Assembly (NCBI GenBank): GCA_964413085.1
Contig: CAYPRI010000001.1
Location: 719 to 64,718 of the forward strand
DNA: 64,000 bases
Reading direction: 5' to 3'
Origin: an uncultured Dehalococcoidales bacterium
GTDB taxonomy: Bacteria > Chloroflexota > Dehalococcoidia > GIF9 > UBA5629
Of the stretch, positions 1,831-64,000 are shown piece by piece. Positions within the stretch are counted from its first letter, which is position 1. Each line of letters begins with the position of its first letter. The notes under the pieces are model-generated. The model saw only the letters and a list, made by a program, of their open reading frames with translations. It was not told the origin of the DNA and made no database searches. A program made the translations under genes and the position numbers.

Positions 1831-3204
1831 ATGAAAGGTAAAGAGACCAAAATTATTTTAACCGAAAAGGAAATGCCAACAACTTGGTACAACGTCCTGC
1901 CGGACCTGCCTAAACCTCTGCCGCCATTGCTACATCCGGGGACAGGCCAGCCTACTCCATTGCCTCCTCCACTCTTCTCCAAAGGTATGCAGGAGCAGGA
2001 GTTCAGCACAGAGCATGATATCGAAATTCCGGATGAGGTGCTGGATATCTACAAACTGTGGAGGCCAACACCAGTAATCCGTGCCTATCGGCTGGAGAAG
2101 GCACTCGATACACCAGCTAAAATCTTCTACAAATATGAAGGCGTCAGCCCAGCCGGCAGCCACAAGCTGAACACGGCTGTGGCCCAGGCTTATTACGCCA
2201 GGCAAGATGGAATTAAGCGCTTTGCCACCGAGACCGGTGCCGGCCAGTGGGGCAGCGCCCTATCAATGGGCTGCGCTTTCTTCGGCTTAGAGTGCAAAGT
2301 CTATATGGTCAGGGTGAGCTACAACCAGAAGCCGTATCGTCGCATTCTGATGGAGACCTGGGGAGCCAAGTGTGTGGCCAGTCCTAGCCAGGATACCCAA
2401 ATAGGGCGCAAAATTCTAGAGGAAGACCCCAACTCACCTGGTAGTCTTGGTATCGCCATCAGCGAGGCAATTGAGGATGCTGGTCCCCGCGATGACACTT
2501 ATTATTCCATAGGCAGCGTCATCAACTCTGTTCTGCTCCATCAAACGATTATCGGCGAAGAAGCTAAAAAGCAGATGGAGAAGGCCGGCCTCTATCCCGA
2601 TATCATCGTAGGCTGTATCGGTGGCGGCAGCAACTTTGCGGGTATGTACCTGCCATTCGTCAAGGATAAAATAACGGGTAAAAAGCCAAACTTGCGCATC
2701 ATCAACGTAGAACCGCAAGCCTGTCCCAGCGTGACTAAAGGTCCTTATACATGGGATTACGGTGATGTAGCTGGAATGGCGCCAATTGCTAAAATGTATA
2801 CGCTAGGCCACACCTTCATACCACCAGGAATCCATGCTGGCGGTCTACGTTACCACGGCATGGCACCGATAATCTGCCATCTTCACAAGCTGGGATTTGT
2901 CGAAGCCAAGGCAGTACCACAGGTGGCAACCTTCCAGGCCGGCGTGCAGTTCGCTAGAACCGAGGGAATCATTCCCGCGCCGGAGCCGAACCACGGCATT
3001 AGAGTAGCCATAGACGAGGCACTGGCCTGCAAGAAGTCCGGAGAATCCAAGACCATACTCATCGCACTCAGCGGGCATGGACACTTCGACCTGGCCGCAT
3101 ACGATGAGTTTCTTAGCGGTAAGCTACAGGACTACGACTATCCTGAGGAGAAGGTGAAAGAGGCTTTAACCCATTTGCCTAAGGTAGAGTACGTAGAGAA
3201 ATAA
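1831..3204 (+). CDS. trpB: Tryptophan synthase beta chain, TrpB2 (long) type.
   Basis: 457 aa. Motifs [60 protein letters not shown] at 1818-1826. Confidence 0.9.
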
Positions 3205-5336: not shown

Positions 5337-5368
5337 AAAGGTGGTGGACGGCCGCACATGCTGGCACC

Positions 5369-8300
5369 TTAACCCGCCTTCTTGATACCGAGGGATATAT
5401 TGTAACCGGAAATACGAAACTTCTCAGTATAACTGCCGTCCGGGGACTCAGCGGAAACCAACTCCAGCGTCAAAGTTTCTTGCTTGATATAGTCGGCAAA
5501 CATTGCTACGACCCGCTCCAGTGCATCTCCGCCTTGATAATAGGTAACTATGTGGTCAGTTATATCCAGACCAGCTGAACGTCGCATAGTCTGCACTCGC
5601 CTCACCAGCTCACGGGCTATGCCCTCAGCTTCCAATTCAGGAGATAACTCGGTTGCCACAGCCACTGCATAATCGCCTTCAGTTGCAGAAACATAACCTG
5701 GTCTGTCAGTGCTTTCTAAAGCTCCCTGGAAATCAACCTCTTTCACGTTGAGTTCGTCCAATATCTGATGATTTAGTTTTTTCAGCGCTTTTATTTCACT
5801 CGCTGACCTGACCTTGACCAATGCCTTGGCCAAAGGCTGCCTCACTTTTATATTTGCTTTAGCTCTGGCAGCGCGACCAAGACTGCAAACGGTCATAACG
5901 GCATTAGTAGCTTCGACAAGTTTCTCGTCTATTTGAGCGGGATCTGAAACAGGGAAATCCGTTAAATGTACGCTTTCCACGGCTTCGGTTTCGACTGACC
6001 CAACCAGATTGCCATAAATCTCTTCGGCAACAAAAGGCATAAAAGGGGCTAGCAATTTTGACAGGGTAACCAGACATTGGTACAAAGTTGAATACGCTGC
6101 CAGCTTGTCAGCATCGCTCTGGCTTTTCCAAAAACGTCGACGGCTACGTCTCACGTACCAATTAGAAAGCTCGTCAATAAATACTTCAAGCTTTCGGCCG
6201 GCCAGGGTAGGGTCATAATTTTCCAGCGCTACATCTACATCGGCCACCAGTTGATTAAGCCTGGAAAGCACCCACCTGTCTAAATCGGAAAGCGATAGCT
6301 TACCAGCCGATTTCGGGTTGAACTGGTCTATGTTTGCGTAGACAACAAAAAATGAATATATATTCCATAAGGTAAGCAGTAGATTGCGTAATACTTCGCC
6401 TACGGCCTCTCCGGAAAAACGTCGGACATTGCCGGCGGGCGCTGATGTGAATAGATACCATCTCAAAGCATCAGCGCCGTATTTGTTAATAATGGACCAC
6501 GGGTCGACCACATTCCCCTTAGCTTTGCTCATCTTCTCGCCCTCGGCATCCAGAATATGTCCCAGGCAGATTACATTTTTAAAGCAGGACTGTTCAAAAA
6601 GTAAAGTCGATATAGCATGCAGGCTATAAAACCATCCTCGTGTCTGGTCAACCGCTTCAGATATAAAGTCCGCCGGAAAGCTACGTTTAAAGGTGTCCTG
6701 ATTTTCGAACGGATAATGCCATTGCGCGAAAGGCATGGCACCTGAGTCGAACCAGCAGTCGATTACTTCTGTTTGCCGAACCATCTTACCTTTGCATTTA
6801 TTGCAGGAAAAAGTAATTCCGTCTGCATAAGGCCGGTGCAGGTCCAGCGGTTCTACCATGCCCATAACATCCGGTTTTTGTTTCAGCTCGTCAATGCTGC
6901 CAACACATTCATAATTACCGCATTTTGAGCAATGCCATATATTAAGCGGAGTTCCCCAGTAACGCTCCCTGGAGAAAGCCCAATCGACGTTGTTCTCCAA
7001 CCAATTGCCGAATCGACCGTATTTTATGTGCGCCGGGTACCAGCTGATCTCATCATTTCCCGAAAGAAGCGCCTCTTTCTTGACAGATGTCCTTATATAC
7101 CAGGTTCTTTTCGCGTAATAGAGAAGAGGTGCCTCACAGCGCCAGCAAAAGGGGTAGGTATGAACAATTTTTCCACTTCGATACAGAAGGCCCCTCTCTT
7201 TTAGATCTTCCAGAACAAGAGGGTCAGCATCCTTAACAAACTTGCCGGCAAAAGAAAAAGTCCCGGTTACTTTCCCATCCAGGTCTATGGGCTGTACAAA
7301 ATCCAAACCTTCGTTTTTCCCGGCCTCGAAATCGATTTCACCAAAGGCAGGTGCGATATGGACGATACCCGTACCCTCTTCCATAGATACAAAATCCCCT
7401 GAGATTACGCGGTATGTCAGATTTTCGTCCGCTGGTTCCAAGGTCAACATTTCATAGGAGAGATTTTCATCCGCGGCACGAGCACCAAACCGCCTTCTTT
7501 CAACACTGAACCTGTGCGGATTATATAACGGCTCGTACCGCAGCCCTACCAGTTCCTTGCCGGGTACAATAGTTTTCGATTCACATCCCTCCAGACCAAC
7601 CTTTTCTGCCAGTGCTGTGGCTAAAATAAGGTAGTCATCATCGCCTTCCATTATGCTGTACTGAGCATCCGGAGCCACAGCCAGAGCAGTATTTCCAGGT
7701 AACGTCCATGGCGTGGTCGTCCAGGCTAATAAAAATACTGGTTTATCCGCCGGATGGATGGCCATAAAACTCTTTAAACCATGAATCGAACCAGGAACAA
7801 CTTTAAACTTTATGTAAACCGAGGGATCTTCGGCATCATCCCTGTAGCCCAGAGCCACCTCGTGTGAGCTTAAAGACGTTCCGCATCGCGGGCAATGCGG
7901 TGTGACTCTATAACCCTGATATATTAAGTTTTTATCCCAGAGTTGCTTCAACGCCCACCAGCAGGACTCGATGTAAGTATTGTCCAGAGTCTTGTAGGCA
8001 TGTTCCAAGTCAAGCCAGAATGCTATCCGTTCCGTCATAGAGTCCCATTCCTTAAGATAGCTGAAAACACTCTCACGGCACAGTGCGTTAAATTTGGCTA
8101 TGCCGTATTTTTCGATCTGTCCCTTGGCGGTAAAACCCAACCTCTTTTCAATTTCCAGCTCTACAGGAAGCCCGTGCGTGTCCCAACCTGCCTTACGAGG
8201 AACATAGTAGTTTTTCATCGTTTTGTATCTGGGGATGACATCTTTAAATACGCGTGACAGTACATGATGAATACCAGGACTGCCGTTAGCTGTAGGTGGA

Positions 8301-50458: not shown

Positions 50459-50811
50459 ACAGTCGATTCTACCGAGGCTCATTATAGCAGAATTGCCCAT
50501 AAAAGCAGTAAAAATTGGATTCATGGTAGGCATAATTACGTGCTCCAGCTTCACTCGCTAAGCTTTAACTACAAAATAAAATAAGCATTGTAACGGACGT
50601 TAATAGCCTCTTACGTATGTTACACTTACGCTGGGGGAAAATAAGGCAGTTCCACACATAGGGTGAATCCACCTGAGTGTGAGTCATCCTTTTATTTGCT
50701 CAATGGCAGGAAACAGGATTCTAAGCCTAAAAACCAGAGAAAAATAGACCTTTTGTTCATTTTATATAAAATACTAAAAGCAGTATAATTTGCGGCGAAA
50801 GTAGGTGCAGG

Positions 50812-51390
50812 ATGGAAATAAAGGTACACGGCAGCAACGACTTCATCCAAGAAATCTCTTCCATGCCCGGCGGCGAAAAAATAAACCTTTGTATCCAATG
50901 CGGTACCTGTTCGGCATCGTGTCCTAATGCCAATAAAATGGACTACACTCCCCGCGCGTTAATTGCCATGGCACGAGCTGGCATGAGAGACGAGGTCCTA
51001 TCCAGCAACTCCATGTGGCTATGCTTATCCTGTTACATGTGCACCGTGCGCTGCCCCAGAGGCATCGTGCCGACATATATTATGCATGCCCTAGAAAATT
51101 TGGCCATGCGTCATCACGCAACCAGCCCAAAAACACGCACTCCCACACTATATAAGGTGTTCAGCAATACTGTATACAATGTGGGGCATATACCGCGATT
51201 CGGCTGCATGGGCCGGTTTTATCTCAGGGTAAATCCATTTGGCGCATTGAAAAACATCCCAGTGGCACTATCACTGTTCAAGCACGGGCGTATGCCTATT
51301 AATATGCGTAGGAAATTAAAGCCCGAGGCACTAAGTCAGTTTAAAGCTATTTTGGACAAAGCCACGATGCTGGAGGAACATCCCAAATAG
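50812..51390 (+). CDS. hdrC: Heterodisulfide reductase subunit C-like (2x[4Fe-4S]).
   Basis: CIQCGTCSASCP and CLSCYMCTVRCP. Confidence 0.8.
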   Translation: MEIKVHGSNDFIQEISSMPGGEKINLCIQCGTCSASCPNANKMDYTPRALIAMARAGMRDEVLSSNSMWLCLSCYMCTVRCPRGIVPTYIMHALENLAMRHHATSPKTRTPTLYKVFSNTVYNVGHIPRFGCMGRFYLRVNPFGALKNIPVALSLFKHGRMPINMRRKLKPEALSQFKAILDKATMLEEHPK

Positions 51391-51464
51391 AAGTAGCTGA
51401 AAATATATATAGAATGTCGAATGTAAACAAATGAAGATATGGCTAGCTCATCGGGAGGCAAGTA

Positions 51465-52343
51465 ATGAAATATTATAGTTATTTCCCAGGCTGCTGTATG
51501 TATGAAGATAGTCAGGCATATGACCTGTCGGCGCGAGCCGTTTCTAAGCTCCTAGACATCGAGCTTATCGAGCTTGAGGACTGGAATTGCTGCGGTTCTA
51601 CCCCTTATACAGTTGTTGACGAACTGTCTGCTTTTTGTTGCTGTGCCCGAAACTTGGCATTAGCTGAAAAACGAGGGCTTGATTTGGTGGCAGCCTGTAG
51701 CGATTGCTATCTCATACTCAGCCGGACAAATCAACACTTTAAGGAATATCCCGAGGTAAAGAAAAAACTAAGCGAGTCTCTGGCTGCAGGTGGGCTGGAG
51801 TATAACGGCACAATTAAAGTGCGACATATACTAGATGTCTTTGCCAACGATGTGAGCAGTGAAGATATCAAAGCCACGGTCAAAGTTGACCTTGGCAGCC
51901 TGAAAGTTGCTCCCTATTATGGCTGTCAGGCAGTGAGGCCGACACCGAACTTCGATGACCCCGAATATCCTGAGTCAATGGACAGGATGGTGGTAAGCAT
52001 CGGAGCCCAGGTTGTGCCGTATCCGCTCAAAACCCGCTGCTGTGGCGGTTCCCTAATTTTATCTGAACAAGATGTTGCTTTAGGACTTATATATAAACTT
52101 CTAGATAACGCTATAAGCAACGGAGCAGATTGCATTGTTACCGTGTGCCCATTTTGTCACCTAAATTTAGATGCCTACCAGAGTGTGGTGAACAAAAAGT
52201 ACAAAACTAACTTCAATATACCGATTCTATTCTTTACACAACTGATGGGAATGGCTTTTGGCATTGAGAGTAAAGCGCTGGGTTTACGAGAAAATATTGT
52301 TCCTATAGGTAAAACATTAGCGAGATACATAACCCAACAATAA
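51465..52343 (+). CDS. hdrB: Heterodisulfide reductase subunit B-like (two CCG domains).
   Basis: CCG motifs (WNCCGS, TRCCGGS). Confidence 0.8.
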
Positions 52344-52353
52344 GGAGGAGCGA

Positions 52354-54315
52354 ATGGAACCAAAAATAGGTGTTTATATATGTCACTGCGGTGCCAATAT
52401 CGCTGCCACGGTCAACGTCGAGCAGGTAACCGAGTTTGCTAAAGGGCTGCCTTCTGTAGCTGTTGCCCGGGACTACAAGTTTGTTTGCTCAGATCCCGGC
52501 CAAGAACTTATAAAGAAAGATATCAAAGAACTGGGCATTGACCGCGTTGTGGTGGCCTCATGCTCGCCTCGATTGCATGAGCAAACCTTCAGGCGAACTC
52601 TAGTCAGTGCCGGCTTAAATCCTTATCTATTCGAGATGGCAAATATACGTGAACATTGCTCGTGGGTACATGAGGATCAAGGCAAAGCTACTGACAAAGC
52701 TAAGGCACTTGTAAGCGCTGCAGTACGACGCGTTTTCTACCACCTACCGTTGGAAACCAAAGAGGTTCCATTTAATCCTAACACACTCGTTGTGGGTGGC
52801 GGTATTGCCGGCATACAGGCGGCACTTGAAATCGCAGACTCAGGTCACAAAGTCTATCTGGTAGAGAGGGAGCCATCAATCGGCGGCCACATGGCCCAAT
52901 TGGATAAAACCTTTCCAACATTAGATTGTTCCGCCTGAATACTGACACCGAAGATGGCCTCGGTGAGGTCACACGAAAACATCGAGATGATGACTTATAG
53001 CGAAGTCATCGGTGTTTCGGGGTATGTAGGCAACTTCAAGGTTAAAATCAGGAAAAAACCGCGCTTTGTGGATGCAGCTAAGTGTACCGGTTGCGGCACC
53101 TGCCAAGATAAATGTCCCATCAAAACGGACAGCGAATTTGATTTTGGCGTCGGTAAAAGGAAGGCAATCTACACACCTTTCCCCCAGGCAGTGCCAAACG
53201 TACCCGTCATAGACAAAGAACGATGCACCTATTTCCTTAAGGGCAAATGCCGTGCCTGCGAGAAATTGTGTGAGGCTAAAGCAATAGATTTCGAGCAGAC
53301 AGAAAAAATGGTAGATTTGGATGTAGGTTCCATTATAGTAGCCACCGGTTTCGATTCCTTTGACCCGTCTCCTATGTCACAATTCGGATATGGTAGATAT
53401 GATAATGTGATTACGGGCTTTCAGTTCGAGAGAATGAGCAGCGCTTCAGGGCCAACCAGCGGCAAAATACTATTGAAAGATGGTTCCCAGCCACGAAGCG
53501 TAGCCATCCTGCACTGTATCGGCAGCCGCGACCTCAACTACCACGAATATTGTTCCCGAGTATGCTGCATGTACTCCCTGAAGTTCTCTCACTTGATACG
53601 AGAAAAAATTCCGGAAGCTGAAATATATCAGCTTTACATCGACCTGCGCTGCTTCGGTAAGGGATATGAGGAATTCTATAATCGTCTCCAAGAAGAAGGG
53701 GTCAACTTCATACGTGGGCGTGCAGGAGAGATTACAAATGTCGCCGAAACACCTGAAGAGCAAGGCAGACTGGTCGTGGTTTGTGAAGATACCTTAATAG
53801 GACGGCAGAGACGCCTGCCGGTGGATTTAGTAGTTCTTAGCACAGCGCTGGAGCCCAGGGCTGATGCCGCTGAAACAGCCAAGCTATTCTCAATTAGCCG
53901 TAGCCGTGACGGTTTCTTCATGGAAAAGCATCCCAAGCTTGACCCCGTTGCCACAACCACAGATGGTATTTTTGTTGCCGGCTGCAGCCAGGGACCAAAG
54001 GATATACCTGATACGGTGGCTCAGGCATCGGCAGCTGCAGCTCGCGTCATGGCTATGATAAGCAAGGGCCATGTGGAAATTGAGGCAGCAACAGCGGTAA
54101 TCGATGAAGAGCTCTGCTCCGGATGCAAGACATGTATTTCACTTTGTCCTTACACGGCCATATCCTTTGATGAAGAAAAGAAGATATCTTCTATCAATGA
54201 GGCCCTGTGTAAGGGTTGTGGAACCTGTGCTGCAGCCTGCCCAAGCGGAGCAATTACCAGCCGACATTTTACCGTCGAACAAATCATGGCAGAGCTAGAA
54301 GGAGTGATGGTATGA
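52354..54315 (+). CDS. hdrA: Heterodisulfide reductase subunit A-like FAD/Fe-S protein, selenocysteine-containing; UGA at 52936-52938 read as Sec.
   Basis: Track ORFs 52354-52938 and 52954-54315 are in the same frame and together align end-to-end with the 670-aa Cys paralog at 56081-58093. The UGA aligns with Cys in the paralog (TLDCSA[U/C]ILTPKM). Confidence 0.8.
52946..52965 (+). promoter_or_regulatory. Candidate bacterial SECIS hairpin for hdrA (CACCGAAG-AUGG-CCUCGGUG).
   Basis: Starts 8 nt after the UGA. 8-bp stem with one mismatch, extendable by UGA/UCA outer pairs. Absent from the Cys paralog at the equivalent position. Confidence 0.5.
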
Positions 54316-54719
54316 GCTACGAGCCCAAAATAATAGGATTCCTATGCAACTGGTGTTCATATGCCGCAGCCGATCTGGCGGGTACTTCCAGGAAAAAATA
54401 CGCGCCTAACGTACGAGTAATTCGTGTCATGTGCAGCGGCCGGGTGGAGCCTACGTTCATCCTCAAGGCCTTTCAGTTGGGGGCTGATGGAGTTCTGGTC
54501 TGTGGCTGACATCCCGGTGAGTGCCATTACCTGGAAGGTAATGTAAAAGCAGCCCGGAGAATTCCTTTACTGAAAAAAATGCTCTCACAGTTCGGCATAG
54601 AGGAAGAGCGTCTCAAACTGGACTGGGTCTCTGCCTCAGAAGGTGAACGCTTTGCTTCTATTATTAATGATATGACTGAACAAATGAGAAAGCTCGGACC
54701 TTTCAACCAAAATAGCTGA
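54312..54719 (+). CDS. mvhD: MvhD/VhuD-like hydrogenase delta subunit ([2Fe-2S]), selenocysteine-containing; UGA at 54507-54509 read as Sec.
   Basis: ATG 54312 overlaps the hdrA stop codon (ATGA). The reading frame continues through the UGA to a stop at 54717-54719. It aligns over its whole length with the Cys paralog at 58090-58518 (LVCG[U]HPGECHY vs LILG[C]HPGDCHY). Confidence 0.75.
54525..54543 (+). promoter_or_regulatory. Candidate bacterial SECIS hairpin for mvhD (CAUUACC-UGGAA-GGUAAUG).
   Basis: Perfect 7-bp stem with a 5-nt loop containing GG, 15 nt downstream of the UGA. The Cys paralog encodes the same peptide (CHYVEGNY) with synonymous codons that cannot form the hairpin. Confidence 0.55.
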
Positions 54720-54932
54720 CATTTCCTATCGGCGCTCAATTTGTAATAATTCTCTTCGTGCTAAAAGCATTACTTGTAATCTTCTGAGTATGTATACTAG
54801 AAGGCATCAAGTATAATTACCTGAAATCTGTCATTTATCCCCGTAAAATACTCAATAATAATCTTGCATAGAATAGCCTTTTTATAGTATCATTGTGCGG
54901 TTTAGCTAAAATCTGTAGAAAGGAAGATTTAT

Positions 54933-56081
54933 ATGGAAGTATTCACCCCTCTTAAAGAAACCACAGAAATCCTATTAGGCAACGGTGGTAATCCACTTGA
55001 ATCGTGTTATCAGTGTGGTATATGTACAGGAGTCTGCCCTTGGAACCGGTTGGTAAGTTTCCCGGTACGTAAGTTGATTCATAAAAGTCAACTCGGGGTA
55101 GTCGACTTTGAGAACGAAGAGGTCTGGCAATGCGTGGGCTGTAACGCCTGTGTCGACCGATGTCCTCGTGGAGTGGAAATACCTCATATCATGCGATCTA
55201 TCCGCCGCGTTATCATGGAACTGGGTGCCGGCATCGTGCCGCACTCGCTGAGGGTAACGGAAAAGAACATCTCTGCCGTTGGTAATCCGCTAGGTGAACC
55301 ACCGGAAAGACGCATGGACTGGGCAAAAGACCTCGGAGTGAAAACATTCACAAAGGGAACAGAGTTACTATACTTCCCCTGCTGCTACCAGACTTACGAT
55401 CCTCCCACTAAAAAAACTGCTGTCGCTACTGTAAATATCCTGAAAAAGGCAAATGTGGACTTCGGCATTCCGGATAATAACGTGGTCTGCTGCGGAGAGA
55501 GCATACGAAAAGCAGGTTCCGAAAGCCTTTTTCAACGTCTGGCCAGAACCAACATCGATATCTTTTCTGAACTCGGCGTTAAAAAAATACTGGTAACCTC
55601 ACCCCACTGTTATCACACCTTCAAAGATGAATATCCCGAACTCGGAGCCAATTACGAGGTGATACATCTATCCCAATATATAGCTGAACTTATAAAAGAT
55701 GGCAGGCTAAAACCAACCAAGGAATTCAAACAGAAAGTAACCTATCACGATTCCTGTTGTCTGGGGCGTTACCAGGGGATCTACGATGAACACAGACAGA
55801 TATTAAACAGCATTCCCGGTCTCGAGTTTGTTGAGATGCCAGACAACCGTGAATATTCGCTCTGTTGTGGTGGGTGCGCCGGCAGACTATGGATGGAAAC
55901 AAAGAAGGGAGAACGGCTGTCCGAGCTCAGACTTGAGCAGGTACTTGATGTAGGAGCAAATACACTGGCCGTAAGCTGCCCTTATTGTATGGCCAATTTC
56001 AACGATGGCGTGCTGTCGATGGGTAAGACTGAGGATATAGAGGTCAAGGATATTTCAGAACTTGTTTCGGAGGCACTATAA
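54933..56081 (+). CDS. HdrD/GlcF-like Fe-S oxidoreductase (fused HdrC plus HdrB-type domains).
   Basis: N-terminal 2x[4Fe-4S] (CYQCGICTGVCP, CVGCNACVDRCP) and two CCG domains (CCGES, CCGGC). Confidence 0.75.
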   Translation: MEVFTPLKETTEILLGNGGNPLESCYQCGICTGVCPWNRLVSFPVRKLIHKSQLGVVDFENEEVWQCVGCNACVDRCPRGVEIPHIMRSIRRVIMELGAGIVPHSLRVTEKNISAVGNPLGEPPERRMDWAKDLGVKTFTKGTELLYFPCCYQTYDPPTKKTAVATVNILKKANVDFGIPDNNVVCCGESIRKAGSESLFQRLARTNIDIFSELGVKKILVTSPHCYHTFKDEYPELGANYEVIHLSQYIAELIKDGRLKPTKEFKQKVTYHDSCCLGRYQGIYDEHRQILNSIPGLEFVEMPDNREYSLCCGGCAGRLWMETKKGERLSELRLEQVLDVGANTLAVSCPYCMANFNDGVLSMGKTEDIEVKDISELVSEAL

Positions 56082-58093
56082 TGGCACAAAAAAAGGCTGC
56101 TAAAAAGGCAACACAAAAAGTAGTGCTTAAGGATACGGAGCCCAAAATAGGTGTCTATGTCTGTCACTGCGGGTCCAATATCGCTGGCACCGTTGATGTC
56201 CCGCAAGTAGTAGAGTTTGTTAAAGGGCTGCCAGCGGTAGTGGTTGCCCGTGAATATAAATTTATGTGCTCAGACCCGGGACAGAGCATGATTAAAGACG
56301 ATATCAAGAATTTAAAGCTTAACCGAGTTGTAGTAGCTTCTTGTTCTCCACTACTGCACGAACCTACGTTTCGCCGCGCTGTCCAGGAAGCTGGCATTAA
56401 TCCTTACCTGTTCGAGATGGCAAACATCAGAGAGCACTGTGCTTGGACCACAGAGGACCATGGAGAGGCCACAGAAAAAGCTAAAGCCCTGGTAAGTGCT
56501 GCCGTAAAGCGAGTCTATTATCATCAGCCGCTTGAGACAAGAGAAGTACCGGTTAACGCCAATACCTTAATCGTCGGTGGTGGTATCGCCGGTATTCAGG
56601 CGGCTTTAGAGATTGCTGATGCGGGGCACAAAGTCTACCTCGTTGAACGGGAGCCAAGCATCGGCGGGCACATGATTCAATTCGACAAAACCTTCCCCAC
56701 CTTAGACTGCTCGGCCTGCATTCTCACACCTAAAATGACCTCGGCAGGATCACACCCTAACATCGAATTGATGACCTACAGTGAAGTCGAAGAAATCTCC
56801 GGTTTTATCGGCAACTTCAAAGCCAGGATTCGAAAGAAAGCACGCTTTGTAGACGAGTCTAAATGCAACGGATGTGGCATGTGCATCGAGAAATGCCCAT
56901 GGAAAGCAGATAGCGAGTTTGACCTTGGCTTAAGCCAGCGTAAAGCCATTTACACCCCATTCGCACAAGCAGTACCTAATATTCCTGTCATAGACAAGGA
57001 AAGCTGCGCCTATTTCCTCAAAGGTAAATGCCGCGCTTGCGAAAAGTTCTGCGAGAGAGAAGCTATCGATTTCGAGCAGCAAGATAAAGTTGTTGAAGTG
57101 GATGTGGGTAATATAATTCTCACCACAGGCTATGACCCGTTCGACCCGACTCCGATGGTAAAGTACGGCTATGGTAAATTCCCAAATGTTGTTACCGGGC
57201 TCGAATTCGAGAGAATCTGTAACTCGGTTGGACCGACGGGCGGCAAAATTGTCCTCAAAGACGGTTCCGAGCCGAAGAGCATCGCTATAATACATTGCGT
57301 CGGTAGCCGTGATGAAAATTACCACGAATACTGTTCTCGAGTCTGCTGCATGTATGCTCTCAAATATTCCCACCTAATTAAAGAAAAGACCAAGGCAGAT
57401 GTCTATCAGATGTACATTGATATGCGCTGCTTTGGCAAAGGTTATGAGGAATTCTATAAGAGGCTTTGTAAAGAAGGTGTTACTTTTATTAGAGGCAAAC
57501 CGGCTGAAGTCACAGACAGGGCCATAAACGACGAGGAAAAAGGGAAATTGATTGTCGTTGGCGAGGACAGCCTACTCGGAAATGTTATCCGCGTTCCGGT
57601 AGACATGGTCGTCCTCTGCATAGGTCTGGAAGCTCGTGCTGACGCTAAACAGGTTGCTCAAAAATTTGGCATCAGCCAGGGCGCCGACGGTTTCTTTATC
57701 GAGAGACATCCTAAATTGGACCCTGTAGCAACCATGACTGAAGGAGTCTTCATCGCAGGCTGCTGTCAGGGACCAAAGGATATACCTGACACGGTGGTGC
57801 AGGCATCAGCGGCTGCAACCCGTGTCTTGGCTACAATCAACAAAGGGAACGTTGAGCTGGAAGCAGCCGTGGCTGTTATCAACGAAGAAAAATGCTCAGG
57901 CTGTCGTATTTGTAACATGCTTTGCCCTTACAATGCCATTTCGTTCATCGAAGAGGAAGAGGTTTCGCGAATCAATGAGGCATTGTGCAAAGGTTGCGGG
58001 ACATGCGTTGCCGCCTGCCCCAGTGCAGCCATAACACACAAGCATTTCACAACTGAAGAGATAATCGCAGAAATAGAGGGGGTACTGGTATGA
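56081..58093 (+). CDS. hdrA: Heterodisulfide reductase subunit A-like FAD/Fe-S protein, cysteine paralog.
   Basis: 670 aa paralogous to 52354-54315 throughout; Cys at the Sec-aligned position. Confidence 0.85.
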
Positions 58094-58518
58094 AAGACTT
58101 CGAACCTATAATCGTAGGCTTCTGTTGCAATTGGTGTTCCTACAGGGGTGCTGATTTGGCCGGCACAGCCAGGATGAAATGCTCGCCAAACGTCCGTATT
58201 ATCAGGGTAATGTGCAGTGGCCGGGTAGAACCTACATTCGTGGCCAAAGCCTTCGAACTCGGAGCCGACGGCGTCTTGATTTTGGGGTGCCATCCAGGTG
58301 ATTGCCATTACGTGGAGGGCAACTATAAGACAATGCGGCGTATGCCCCTCTTAAAGAAGATGCTACAGCAACTTGGCATCGAAGAAGAACGAGTTCGACT
58401 GGACTGGGTATCGGCTTCTGAAGGCGACAAATTCGTATCCGTAGTAGATGATATGACAGAAAAGGTCAGAGCTCTGGGACCGCTTAATAAGAACTCCAAG
58501 GAGGCGAAACATGGCTAA
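58090..58518 (+). CDS. mvhD: MvhD-like hydrogenase delta subunit, cysteine paralog.
   Basis: 142 aa; ATGA overlap with the hdrA stop, the same architecture as the Sec copy. Confidence 0.8.
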
Positions 58519-59470
58519 ACTTAAATTAGCGCTGTACTGGGCATCAAGTTGCGGCGGCTGTGAAATCGCCCAGCTTCAGATTGGCGACAAAATCCTAAAG
58601 CTGGCCGAGGTTGCAGATATCGTATTCTGGCCGGTAGCCATCGATGCCAAATACAAGGATGTCGAAGCCATGCCAGCAAAGAGTATAGACGTCTGCCTGT
58701 TCAATGGAGCTGTTAGAACATCAGAACAGGAGCATATGGCTAAGATGCTCCGTGAAAAGTCAAAGGTAATGATTGCCTATGGTGCCTGCGCCTATGGGGG
58801 AGGTATTCCTGGTCTGGGCAACATGTTCAACCGCCAGTTGATTTTCGAACGAGCTTACCTAGAAACGCAATCAACAGATAATAAAGACAAGGTCTTACCA
58901 CAAACAAAATACAAGGTTCCGGAAGGCGAACTTACTATTCCAGAATTCTATGACACGGTAAAAACTCTGGCGCAGACAGTGGACGTAGATTATACAGTCC
59001 CCGGTTGTCCTCCGGAAGCCAGAACAACCTGGCTTGCCTTAGAAGCGCTTATATCGGGCAAATTACCGCCCAAGGGCACCGTGATTACGCACAATACTAA
59101 GGCGGTATGTGATGATTGTCCGCGTAAGAGAGACGTGAAAAAGGTTAAAAAGTTCTACCGGACTTTCGAGAAGGTTCCCGAACCGGAAATATGCCTTCTG
59201 GAGCAGGGTTTCCTGTGCGCCGGCATCGCCACCCGCGGCGGCTGTGAGGCACCGTGTCCCCAGGCCAATATGCCATGCACCGGCTGTTACGGCCCTGTGG
59301 ACGGAGTAGTAGATCAGGGCGCTCACTTCCTAAGCGCAGTGGCCTCTGTGATTGATTCAAATGACCCCGAGGAAATACAGAGAATTATAGATGGTATACG
59401 AGACCCGGTAGGTACATTCTACCGCTACAGTCTGCCTGATTCGCTACTAAGGAGGGCGAGAATAAAATGA
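58511..59470 (+). CDS. mvhG: [NiFe] hydrogenase small subunit (MvhG/VhuG-type, cytoplasmic, no Tat signal).
   Basis: N-terminal [12 protein letters not shown]. Confidence 0.85.
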
Positions 59471-60927
59471 AAAGGATAACAATTGATCCCATAACCAGGC
59501 TGGAAGGCCACGGTAAGATAGAGATCTTCCTTAATGATGCCGGTGAGGTCAAAAACAGCTATTTTCAAGTCCCTGAACTGAGGGGCTTTGAAAAGTTCTC
59601 TGAAGGACGTCTGGCCGAGGATATGCCCCAGATTACACAGAGAATCTGCGGCGTATGTCCTGAAGCTCACCACATGGCATCAACTAAATGTTTAGATGAC
59701 CTTTTCCACGTTGACCCGCCAAGCCCCGCTAAAAAGCTTCGCGAGCTCTTCTATAGCACTTTCTATGTTACGGACCATACCACTCATTTCTATATACTAG
59801 CCGGCCCCGATTTCGTCATGGGGCCGGATGCTCCCGTGGCCGAGCGAAATATTCTGGGAGTAATTGCTAAAGTCGGCTTAGAATTAGGCGGAGCTGTTAT
59901 CAACACCCGAATGAAAAATCACCATATCATACATATGCTTGGTGGCAGAGCCGTGCATCCTGTATTCGGTCTGCCCGGTGGAGTCAGCAAGGGACTTAAC
60001 GAAGATGAGAGAAAAGAAGTCGAGCAGATAGCTAAGGACTCCATTGAATTTGCCAAGCTATCTTTGAAAGTATTCGACGATATCGTCCTCAAGAACAAAG
60101 CATACGTCGATATGATTGTCAGCGACGCTTTCACACACCGCACTTATTACATGGGTCTGGTTGACGATAAAAACAGGGTTAACTTCTATGACGGCAAGGT
60201 CCGAGTGGTGGACCCCGACGGAAAGGAATTTGCTAAGTACGCACCGAGAGAATACCTCAACAACGTCGCCGAACATGTTGAGCCCTGGAGCTACATGAAA
60301 TTCCCCTTCCTCAAGAATGTCGGCTGGAAAGGATTTGTCGACGGCAAAGATAGCGGCGTTTTCAGAGCAACCCCTCTATCAAGGCTCAATGCTTCCGATG
60401 GTATGGCAACACCATTAGCCCAAGAAGCTTACGAGAAGTTCTACTCTACATTGGGCGGTAAGCCGGTGCATCATACCCTGGCTACTCACTGGGCTCGCCT
60501 TGTCGAGCTCCTCTATGCTGCCGAAAGATTACTGGAGCTGAGTAAGGACCCTGAGATAACTAGCCCAAACATCCGCACTATCCCCACAGCCAAGCCGGAT
60601 GAAGGTGTAGGCATTGTTGAAGCGCCCAGAGGTACTCTAACGCATCATTACATCACCGATGAGAACGGTATTATCAAGAAAGCTAACCTAATCGTGGCTA
60701 CAGTGAACAACGCTGCAGCAGTAAATATGTCAGTCAATAAAGCAGCAAGGGCACTTATTCAACCGGGTAAGGAAATCACCGAAGGACTTCTTAATCGCAT
60801 AGAAATGGCGTGGCGACCCTATGACCTTTGCCTTGCCTGCGCTACGCATACGCTACCGGGTCAAGCACCGATGGAAGTGGTCATATACAATAGCAAGAGG
60901 GAGATAATAAAAAGGCTCAAACGCTAA
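59467..60927 (+). CDS. mvhA: [NiFe] hydrogenase large subunit (MvhA-type).
   Basis: N-terminal RICGVCPEAHH and C-terminal DLCLACATH Ni-binding motifs, both with Cys, so this is a NiFe rather than a NiFeSe enzyme. Confidence 0.85.
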   Translation: MKRITIDPITRLEGHGKIEIFLNDAGEVKNSYFQVPELRGFEKFSEGRLAEDMPQITQRICGVCPEAHHMASTKCLDDLFHVDPPSPAKKLRELFYSTFYVTDHTTHFYILAGPDFVMGPDAPVAERNILGVIAKVGLELGGAVINTRMKNHHIIHMLGGRAVHPVFGLPGGVSKGLNEDERKEVEQIAKDSIEFAKLSLKVFDDIVLKNKAYVDMIVSDAFTHRTYYMGLVDDKNRVNFYDGKVRVVDPDGKEFAKYAPREYLNNVAEHVEPWSYMKFPFLKNVGWKGFVDGKDSGVFRATPLSRLNASDGMATPLAQEAYEKFYSTLGGKPVHHTLATHWARLVELLYAAERLLELSKDPEITSPNIRTIPTAKPDEGVGIVEAPRGTLTHHYITDENGIIKKANLIVATVNNAAAVNMSVNKAARALIQPGKEITEGLLNRIEMAWRPYDLCLACATHTLPGQAPMEVVIYNSKREIIKRLKR

Positions 60928-60933
60928 TTTGCG

Positions 60934-61425
60934 TTGACAGCAATAAGGGAGTTTTCTCACAAGGCTAGTAGTACGAAAACACTGATTTTAGGACTGGGAA
61001 ACACACTTCTTTGCGATGACGGGGTTGGACTCTACGTTGCCGCTAAACTAAGAGAAAAGATAAACCAACCCAATATAACAATTATTGAGACCGGCGTTGC
61101 CGGTCTCAGTCTTTTAGACCTCCTAGTTGGATATGATAAAGCTATTATCGTTGACGCTATTCAAACTGAGGGCGGGAAAATAGGTCAGATATACAGGTTA
61201 GCCCCGGAAGCTTTCAACACAGCCGTACGAACGGCATCTGCTCATGGAATCGACTTCCCCACTGCCCTGGAGTTCGGGAAAAAACTGGGCCTTCACTTGC
61301 CTCAGCAAATAACAATCTTCGCCATTGAAGTATCCGATATAACTACTTTCCGGGAAGAATGTACACCTGAAGTGCAGAAAGCTATTCCTAAATGTGTCGA
61401 AATGATACTAAAAGAGCTAAATTAA
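60934..61425 (+). CDS. Hydrogenase maturation endopeptidase (HycI/FrhD-like).
   Basis: LILGLGNTLLCDDGVGLYVA. Confidence 0.75.
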   Translation: MTAIREFSHKASSTKTLILGLGNTLLCDDGVGLYVAAKLREKINQPNITIIETGVAGLSLLDLLVGYDKAIIVDAIQTEGGKIGQIYRLAPEAFNTAVRTASAHGIDFPTALEFGKKLGLHLPQQITIFAIEVSDITTFREECTPEVQKAIPKCVEMILKELN

Positions 61426-63173: not shown

Positions 63174-64000
63174 CTACGGCAGGATAGTCCTTGTTCCTGA
63201 GTTATTGAGAAAGAACGCCTCTCCGAACTCTTGAAACAATCGTGACTCGGCAGGAAAGCCGGTACAATGAGATGTTCCCAATTTCTTAATACCGATATAT
63301 TTAAGGTCATCGACAGTTTTCTCAAGCCTTTCCTCGGAAGCCCGAATAAGGTGAGTCCCGCCGATGGCAGCATAGATCGAATTTTTACCGGTTAGCTTTT
63401 GGGCATGGCGCAGTGTGTTAATGATTCCATGATGTGCGCAGCCCAATATGACAACCAGACCAAATTCGGCGTCAATCACAAGGGCGAGGTCATCAGCTAA
63501 CAAGTCCTGCCGGAAATGGCCGTCTTCCCTTACAAAGAGATTATCTTCCACCTGTTCGTATCCAGAAACCATCGGGATTTCTCCGGTAGTGATGGTGTGC
63601 TCACTTATTCGGACAGACTCTTTGGTCAACTTGAACCGTGCACCGAAGCTTTCCAGTTCTTCGCGTGAAAATGGAATACCGATATAATGTTCCCTTGCCT
63701 GTTTGTCACGTCTGGTGTATTTGGAGGACCAGATATCAGGATGAGCGATTACCTCGACCTCCCTCTTCAGTCTCAGCACATCGCGCAACCCGCCGGTGTG
63801 GTCAGCATGACCGTGGCTCAACACTATTTTATCAATGGTAGACAGGTCGATACCCAGCAGTTGGGCGTTATGCGCTGCCGTGGAACTAAGTCCCGTGTCC
63901 ATCAGGATATTCATCCCATCCACTTTAACCAGGATGCTCAGTCCCCACTCGGCCAGAAAACCATAGTTCGCCGTATTTTCACTTAAAGTAATTATCTGAA
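63174..64000 (-). CDS. MBL-fold metallo-hydrolase, partial; N-terminus runs off the window end.
   Basis: HGHADHTGG motif. The frame stays open upstream of the track's GTG start through to the window end (...ENTANYGFLAEWGLSILVKVDGMNILMDTG). Confidence 0.7.
   Translation of the reverse strand, partial: QIITLSENTANYGFLAEWGLSILVKVDGMNILMDTGLSSTAAHNAQLLGIDLSTIDKIVLSHGHADHTGGLRDVLRLKREVEVIAHPDIWSSKYTRRDKQAREHYIGIPFSREELESFGARFKLTKESVRISEHTITTGEIPMVSGYEQVEDNLFVREDGHFRQDLLADDLALVIDAEFGLVVILGCAHHGIINTLRHAQKLTGKNSIYAAIGGTHLIRASEERLEKTVDDLKYIGIKKLGTSHCTGFPAESRLFQEFGEAFFLNNSGTRTILP

Follow-up and report, generated by a model that had tools for sequence, protein, structure and literature searches.

The stretch analysed here (the window) comprises 64,000 nucleotides of DNA from an uncultured Dehalococcoidales bacterium. 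It carries, directly behind hdrA and in the order hdrC-hdrB-hdrA-mvhD, a gene of the FlpD/MvhD family whose reading frame contains an internal UGA codon. This gene, mvhD, starts with ATG at 54312, overlapping the hdrA stop (TGA 54313-54315) as ATGA; its frame crosses TGA 54507-54509 at codon 66 and terminates with TGA at 54717-54719. An earlier note on this DNA, drawn from the letters alone, had given the same start, internal TGA and stop, and had proposed that the UGA encodes selenocysteine (Sec), with a hairpin just downstream serving as Sec insertion sequence (SECIS). Every coordinate checks out, and the proposal is backed both by the comparison of orthologs and by the fit of the hairpin to the bacterial SECIS (bSECIS) consensus. 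We consider it very probable that the mvhD UGA is read as Sec by way of the downstream hairpin, through standard bacterial Sec decoding. The argument turns on the following features.

54312-54719, plus strand: mvhD (FlpD/MvhD, 135 codons), with one in-frame UGA read through; predicted selenoprotein gene
54507-54509, plus strand: UGA codon 66, predicted Sec, facing the conserved Cys of G-C-H-x-G-[DE]-C-H-Y
54525-54543, plus strand: predicted bacterial SECIS hairpin CAUUACCU / GGA / AGGUAAUG, spanning codons H72-Y-L-E-G-N77 plus the first base of codon 78
58090-58518, plus strand: Cys-type mvhD paralog, with Cys codon TGC at 58288-58290 and without a SECIS-type hairpin in register

Reading frame and hairpin of mvhD

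Translated through the UGA, mvhD yields a full-length PF02662 FlpD/MvhD domain (Pfam, E = 1.6e-56) with the conserved Cys pattern of that family. The product aligns end to end with the solved chain 5odc_D (E = 2e-50), where the UGA faces Cys67 of G-C-H-x-G-D-C-H-Y. Codon 66 is TGA in the window, in 19 Dehalococcoidia loci and in a Desulforudis locus (L073), and TGC or TGT in 61 homologues. The second copy in the window, 72% identical to the first, has TGC here, as the earlier alignment of the two paralogs had indicated. The closest genomic relatives of mvhD, at 80-91% identity, all belong to metagenome-assembled genomes (MAGs) of Dehalococcoidia or Dehalococcoidales. Might UGA be a sense codon throughout this genome? 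Such a reassignment is ruled out by the 12 of 41 long open frames that end in TGA, hdrA and mvhD included; UGA is an ordinary stop here. A UGA followed by C, as at codon 66, stands in a weak termination context.

Selection on either side of the UGA was read from 20 sequences, the window and the 19 Dehalococcoidia loci sharing the mvhD TGA (hereafter the Sec clade). The ratio of nonsynonymous to synonymous divergence (dN/dS) amounts to 0.05 in the part before the UGA and 0.08 in the part behind it. Synonymous sites are saturated (synonymous divergence, pS, about 0.72), and the frame has no other stops. Between the TGA and the next ATG, at 54579, the residues Arg82, Arg83 and Leu86 are fixed and their codons switch between synonymous families. 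Because the frame stays open, with a dN/dS of 0.08 and synonymous turnover beyond the UGA, this comparison of aligned sequences excludes a truncated or split mvhD.

The hairpin of the earlier note, CAUUACC/UGGAA/GGUAAUG with a perfect stem of 7 bp, lies exactly at 54525-54543. RNAfold closes an eighth pair (U-A), giving a stem of 8 bp (54525-54532 / 54536-54543) with a GGA triloop; the alternative view is 7 bp with the loop UGGAA. The structure starts 15 nt after the UGA. Its energy is -8.1 kcal/mol for the 21 nt from 54524 to 54544 (z = -3.0), and the 60 nt counted from the UGA fold at -17.7 kcal/mol. An extension of the lower stem in this 60-nt minimum free energy (MFE) structure was set aside, since it is not conserved and codons 80-81 vary.

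In the bSECIS consensus of Zhang and Gladyshev, the loop has 3-9 nt and the stem 4-16 bp, the UGA-to-loop distance is 16-37 nt, the MFE is -7.5 kcal/mol or lower, and the loop follows the pattern N1-G-[G/U]-N-N2 with N1 and N2 paired (as summarised in PMC13188914). Both views of the mvhD hairpin (8 bp/GGA and 7 bp/UGGAA) fall within the loop and stem ranges. The loop U-G-G-A-A, its U and A paired, conforms to the pattern, the apical loop lies 22-23 nt from the UGA, and -8.1 kcal/mol is below the energy limit. The likeness to a SECIS element remarked on earlier thus extends to the published constraints. Of the 2087 TGA trinucleotides in the window, only six have a Watson-Crick stem of 7 bp or more behind them in bSECIS geometry. 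If G-U pairs are also admitted, long open frames extend to both sides of a TGA of this kind at two sites alone, those of mvhD and hdrA. From a single genome the signal is modest: under local codon usage, 9% of synonymous encodings of HYLEGN contain the 6-bp core, and 0.6% reproduce the exact codons.

The corresponding sequence of the Cys paralog, cattacgtggagggcaac, cannot pair in the register of the mvhD hairpin, as the earlier note had said. The paralog folds in another way: from its Cys codon it forms a hairpin at 58288-58321 with -17.2 kcal/mol (z = -3.5). This hairpin is imperfect (UGCC/GGCA, UCCA/UGGA and GUGAU/AUUAC, with the loop UGCC) and apparently not conserved among Cys homologues; the Sec copy has a competing fold of similar type. 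Because the Cys copy folds differently but at least as stably, single-sequence folding cannot separate the paralogs. The comparison of their folding, which the earlier note had suggested as a check, therefore failed to separate them and was rejected as a discriminator.

Constraint on the hairpin codons and distribution of the hairpin

The hairpin core is identical in all 19 Dehalococcoidia TGA orthologues. Across the Sec clade, codons 72-77 have a pS of 0.025, compared with 0.78 for the remainder of the C-terminal part of mvhD. Of 98 degenerate codons whose amino acid is conserved, only 7 never vary, and five of these are codons 72, 73, 74, 76 and 77 (CAU UAC CUG .. GGU AAU; hypergeometric P = 1.8e-6); another is the GGC directly before the UGA. 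The 61 Cys homologues use all synonymous alternatives at the hairpin codons. We regard this comparative evidence, frozen hairpin codons amid saturated synonymous sites in 20 sequences, as decisive for a predicted RNA element.

The constraint extends to the protein too, and to this extent is not purely synonymous. The residue after G-N is a conserved Tyr in the Cys forms and V, M, E, I or K in the Sec clade, where the base after AAU is G or A; with the Tyr lost, G or A can follow AAU. The earlier claim that the hairpin is kept by synonymous codon choice consequently stands for the frozen synonymous sites and needs amending for this amino acid change.

Two further analyses concerned pairing inside the clade. 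A classical covariation test proved uninformative because the stem is invariant; in pair counting, 94% of cells are paired, as opposed to 25-63% when the partner is slid. RNAalifold also drew a weak mini-helix (YGG/YYG) enclosing the UGA, which was rejected as a general feature, the upstream codons being free in the wider UGA-mvhD family. Around the UGA itself (54498-54520), the preceding codon is always GGC in the Sec clade, codon 63 is GUC in 19 of 20 sequences, and codon 68 always ends in a pyrimidine. These constraints, absent from the wider UGA-mvhD family, are either lineage-specific or an effect of codon context.

Does the hairpin accompany the UGA outside this clade? From a metagenome scan for G-UGA-H-P-G-D-C-H-Y and from the genome loci came 134 distinct mvhD sequences with the UGA. 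One of two hairpin types is present in 128 of them, and the 6-bp core occurs in 3 of the 61 Cys homologues. The sequences divide as follows.

Type A, 99 of 134: AUUACC/GGUAAU core, as in the window
Type B, 29 of 134: GCCACU/AGUGGC, another stem, located 3 nt upstream
Other, 6 of 134: neither core; three of the six have long alternative stems

The hairpin of the window is thus the commonest one in the UGA-mvhD family. The triloop begins with G in all 99 type-A sequences. Their loop is closed by U-A in 74 cases and by A-U in 11 (Fisher P = 2.5e-8), a swap that arises from four codon pairs (CUG-GAA, CUG-UCA, CAG-GUU and CAG-UCU). Single-linkage clustering at 80% identity yielded 28 protein clusters. 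Type A is present in 16 of them, and both types are found together in one, which implies that the hairpin can switch while the UGA stays. To the Sec clade with its AUUACC/GGUAAU hairpin, the metagenomes add 79 distinct UGA-mvhD sequences with the identical hairpin, spread over at least 15 protein clusters. The metagenome loci (L081-L200) show types A and B over the codons of C-H-Y-x-x-G-N as interchangeable solutions.

Two genomes illustrate the association. In a close relative of the window (L019), mvhD has TGC, the hairpin has decayed to CAC UAC CUU GAA GGU AAC, and hdrA retains its TGA. The Desulforudis mvhD, which has the TGA, carries a non-homologous type-B stem, GCCACUA/UAGUGGC. The earlier note had asked whether orthologs with TGA keep the hairpin, and they do, in 19 of 19 Dehalococcoidia loci and, with both hairpin types counted, in 128 of the 134 in the wider set. 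The cases it had named as contrary, TGA without hairpin and hairpin without TGA, do not exceed a few per cent.

The hdrA companion, decoding model and rival explanations

The gene in front of mvhD shows a second arrangement of the same kind.

52354-54315, plus strand: hdrA, with an in-frame UGA at 52936-52938 (codon 195, motif D-C-S-A-U); predicted companion selenoprotein gene in the same operon
52955-52971, plus strand: predicted hdrA SECIS hairpin UGGCCUC / GGU / GAGGUCA, with 23-nt spacing and a triloop starting with GG

The hdrA hairpin folds at -8.6 kcal/mol for the 19 nt from 52954 to 52972 (z = -3.5). The two hairpins share an identical geometry, with a GG-starting triloop 23 nt after the UGA, and a single SelB would require just such a common geometry of two elements in an operon. 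The hdrA hairpin is near-invariant across related loci; an A-to-G change retains a U-G pair. Residue U195 aligns, in a C-x-x-U motif, with X (Sec197) of the Methanococcus maripaludis HdrA structure 9sfi_A, and Sec197 was observed experimentally in that protein (PMC13518236). The 16 TGA-mvhD loci in which this position can be seen retain the hdrA TGA, as does L019. In some relatives hdrA and mvhD differ in their use of Sec, namely in L019 (1625, 3196) and an Anaerolineae locus, L075 (549); in the latter the hdrA TGA is followed by GGAUGCC-GGUC-GGCAUCC and mvhD has Cys.

We propose the following course of decoding. With UGA-66 in the ribosomal A site, the hairpin would lie just outside the mRNA entry channel and could recruit SelB-GTP-Sec-tRNA(Sec). 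SelB would deliver Sec, out-competing RF2, and translation would run on to the stop at 54717. The hdrA message would be recoded likewise by its hairpin of identical geometry, so that one SelB would serve both genes. We infer Sec insertion, SelB binding and the presence of selA, selB, selC and selD in the genome.

Several observations weigh against this reading. The evidence for Sec insertion at UGA-66 is indirect. The bare 19-nt mvhD hairpin has -7.1 kcal/mol, borderline with respect to the threshold of -7.5, and Rfam returned no SECIS match, either for the window at the gathering threshold or for 52800-54800 and 54450-54950 at E up to 10. In a 38-nt context of the Sec copy, RNAfold slightly favours a competing fold, CCGGUGA/UUACCUGG. 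The stem is invariant within the Dehalococcoidia clade, so neither RNAalifold nor pair counting provides classical covariation. Finally, no tRNA-Sec, selA, selB or selD was found in the window ORFs (open reading frames) scanned, in about 16 kb of flanks (near-identical contigs, about 8 kb on each side of the window) or in the flanks of related loci. For tRNA-Sec, ARAGORN covered the window and 22 related loci. For the sel genes, Pfam and NCBIfam were run on 30 window ORFs, including all of SelA, SelB or SelD size, with about 20 ORFs of at least 120 aa outside the scan; the ORFs scanned are TrpB-like, DnaG, RpoD, Ffh, DnaB, HolB, a CCG-domain protein, an IstB-like ATPase and others. BSepDB records Dehalococcoidia MAGs with 46-49 selenoproteins (PMC13326102), a support at the level of the class only.

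Could the TGA simply be a genuine stop, mvhD being a pseudogene or a split gene (65 aa plus a 46-aa ORF from ATG 54579) with an incidental hairpin? UGA normally is a stop in this genome, the Sec machinery is missing from the window sequences scanned, and public gene calls on 99.98% identical contigs (L204:17065-19430) list FlpD fragments of 65 and 46 aa, with hdrA divided into 194 and 453 aa. We nevertheless judge this highly improbable, since the TGA and the frame are kept in 20 sequences with saturated synonymous sites and a dN/dS of 0.08 after the TGA. The conserved Cys71-His-Tyr and the synonymous turnover of Arg and Leu codons both fall in the 23 codons from the TGA to ATG 54579. Splitting would deprive the protein of two conserved Cys, and the pattern recurs in hdrA, at a position where M. 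maripaludis is proven to have Sec. A different possibility is that the UGA is read without selenium, by a near-cognate or suppressor tRNA or by a SelB-delivered, Cys-charged tRNA-Sec-like molecule, the residue being Cys, Trp or another. The idea of SelB-dependent Cys insertion draws on reports of Cys tRNAs that resemble tRNA-Sec, and the inserted residue is not identifiable from sequence. The site is, however, a Cys-to-UGA exchange in two families with experimentally established Sec, and the hairpin conforms to the bSECIS consensus of the SelB type. Sec use is documented in Dehalococcoidia, and near-identical contigs carry a third Cys-aligned TGA, in a peroxiredoxin gene about 2 kb past the end of the window. 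Taken together these points make selenium-free reading very unlikely.

It might also be asked whether the hairpin is the recoding signal at all. It could be a by-product of H-Y-L-E-G-N and codon bias, or serve pausing or mRNA stability, with the signal, if there is one, placed elsewhere, as in the competing 5' fold or in an element of the 3'-untranslated region (3'-UTR). The 6-bp core in 9% of random synonymous encodings would allow this, as would the presence of the competing fold, a Cys paralog that folds as well or better, and the lack of stem covariation within the clade. Yet GGU76 and AAU77, needed only for the SECIS-type hairpin, are invariant in 20 of 20 sequences. At codon 69 (GGN), in the 5' arm of the competing fold, the Sec clade by contrast shows all four bases. 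The loop of that fold starts 11 nt after the UGA, below the 16-nt bSECIS minimum, and the fold would probably lie inside the ribosome footprint. A signal of the archaeal or eukaryotic 3'-UTR type finds no support in 54717-54935: shuffled sequences fold as well (z = +0.25), and Rfam gives no match up to E = 10. The SECIS-type hairpin, moreover, tracks the UGA across many lineages and decays when the UGA is lost. We accordingly give little credence to a signal other than this hairpin and retain Sec decoding through the mvhD SECIS.

Surrounding genes, known relatives and significance

The remaining genes of the Sec cluster and a second, all-Cys cluster flank the two UGA-containing genes.

50812-52343, plus strand: hdrC-like (50812-51390) and hdrB-like (51465-52343) genes, with Pfam Fer4 dicluster and CCG domains, upstream in the cluster
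54933-61425, plus strand: second, all-Cys cluster (Pfam; gene calls on identical contigs)
54933-56081: hdrBC-like gene of the all-Cys cluster
56081-58093: hdrA of the all-Cys cluster
58090-58518: mvhD of the all-Cys cluster, the paralog listed above
58511-59470: mvhG
59467-60927: mvhA
60934-61425: hycI protease gene

A promoter-like site was located at 50761-50789. The all-Cys cluster begins 213 nt after the Sec cluster hdrC-hdrB-hdrA(UGA)-mvhD(UGA). Sec and all-Cys clusters stand in tandem in at least four related genomes (L002, L013, L015 and L018, around 5343-5442); other relatives have no second hdrA within 3 kb. Elsewhere in the window, a T-box leader (Rfam RF00230, 97 bits) at 1449-1707 precedes a gene for a TrpB-like PLP enzyme at 1831-3204.

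The peroxiredoxin gene mentioned above lies about 2.2 kb beyond window position 64000, on the minus strand in window orientation (L204:5317-6013; also L205 and L206). Its in-frame TGA occupies the position of the peroxidatic Cys (DFTFV-U-PTE) and is followed by a weak hairpin, UGGCAA-CGG-UUGCUG. About 160 nt downstream of the TGA, a 1-nt insertion shifts the frame in three independent assemblies alike. This is a third selenoprotein gene, or else one in decay.

How does the mvhD element compare with known systems? FrhD/MvhD/VhuD and HdrA are established selenoprotein families of bacteria and archaea. FrhD/MvhD/VhuD has been verified experimentally as a selenoprotein in Methanococcus and by 2006 was the third-largest bacterial selenoprotein family, often in an operon with Sec-HdrA (PMC1794560, PMC13188914). 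The mvhD of the window shares with these proteins (PF02662/COG1908) the domain, the pairing with hdrA and, by prediction, Sec in place of a conserved Cys; known members include VhuD of Methanococcus voltae and the bacterial FrhD of Syntrophobacter, Syntrophus, Moorella, Carboxydothermus and others. Its host belongs to the Dehalococcoidia and is not a deltaproteobacterium, clostridium or methanogen. It has a single predicted Sec, whereas archaeal VhuD is listed with two ('CxxU, 2 Sec'), and the archaeal genes use a 3'-UTR SECIS. Among solved chains, the VhuD of M. maripaludis (9sfi_K) also matched the window protein, in sixth place. Likewise, Sec197 of M. maripaludis HdrA corresponds to U195 of the window, the predicted SECIS here being of the bacterial kind and inside the ORF. 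The Methanococcus isoenzyme sets (vhu/vhc and fru/frc) also combine Sec and all-Cys HdrA-MvhD pairs in one genome; in the window the pairs are adjacent, and the Sec cluster is without its own mvhG and mvhA.

As an RNA structure, the hairpin resembles the SECIS elements of E. coli fdhF and fdnG in being an in-ORF stem-loop immediately 3' of the Sec-UGA, with a small GG-starting loop, a flanking closing pair, a spacing of 22-23 nt and an upper stem of 7-8 bp. It differs from them in having no sequence similarity, no bulged U and no Rfam match. The loop of mvhD lies about 5 nt further from its UGA than that of E. coli fdhF. The arrangement in mvhD is thus of an already known kind and only the instance is new; the current understanding of selenocysteine decoding is unchanged.

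What might Sec do in this protein? In Methanothermobacter marburgensis MvhD, Cys16 is reported to be an additional, non-ligand Cys, and His68 and Asp71 to adjoin the Cys202/Cys205 pair of HdrA (PMC13580544). By elimination among the five conserved Cys, Cys16 being a non-ligand, Sec66 would take the place of a [2Fe-2S] ligand in MvhD, at the interface with HdrA and facing its U195. We tentatively suggest, as a rather unlikely possibility, that two Sec occupy both faces of one electron-transfer junction, with the all-Cys hdrA-mvhD as a selenium-independent back-up. In such a junction the selenolate of MvhD U66 may be a ligand of the [2Fe-2S] cluster, beside the equivalents of His68 and Asp71, and HdrA U195 may belong to a Cys-Sec pair between this cluster and the bifurcating FAD. 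If true, this would provide a natural bacterial Sec/Cys isoenzyme pair in which to probe the role of selenium in the gating of flavin-based electron bifurcation.

The comparative data offer a clean example of an RNA element that freezes synonymous sites and even displaces a conserved Tyr inside a coding region, and they reveal one protein family with two interchangeable hairpin solutions. The main value of the finding lies in annotation. Gene calls split both hdrA and mvhD at the UGA, and the full-length relatives of mvhD returned from a large protein collection are Cys forms only, at no more than 83% identity; the Sec-dependent Hdr-Mvh modules of Dehalococcoidia are therefore under-counted in metabolic reconstructions.

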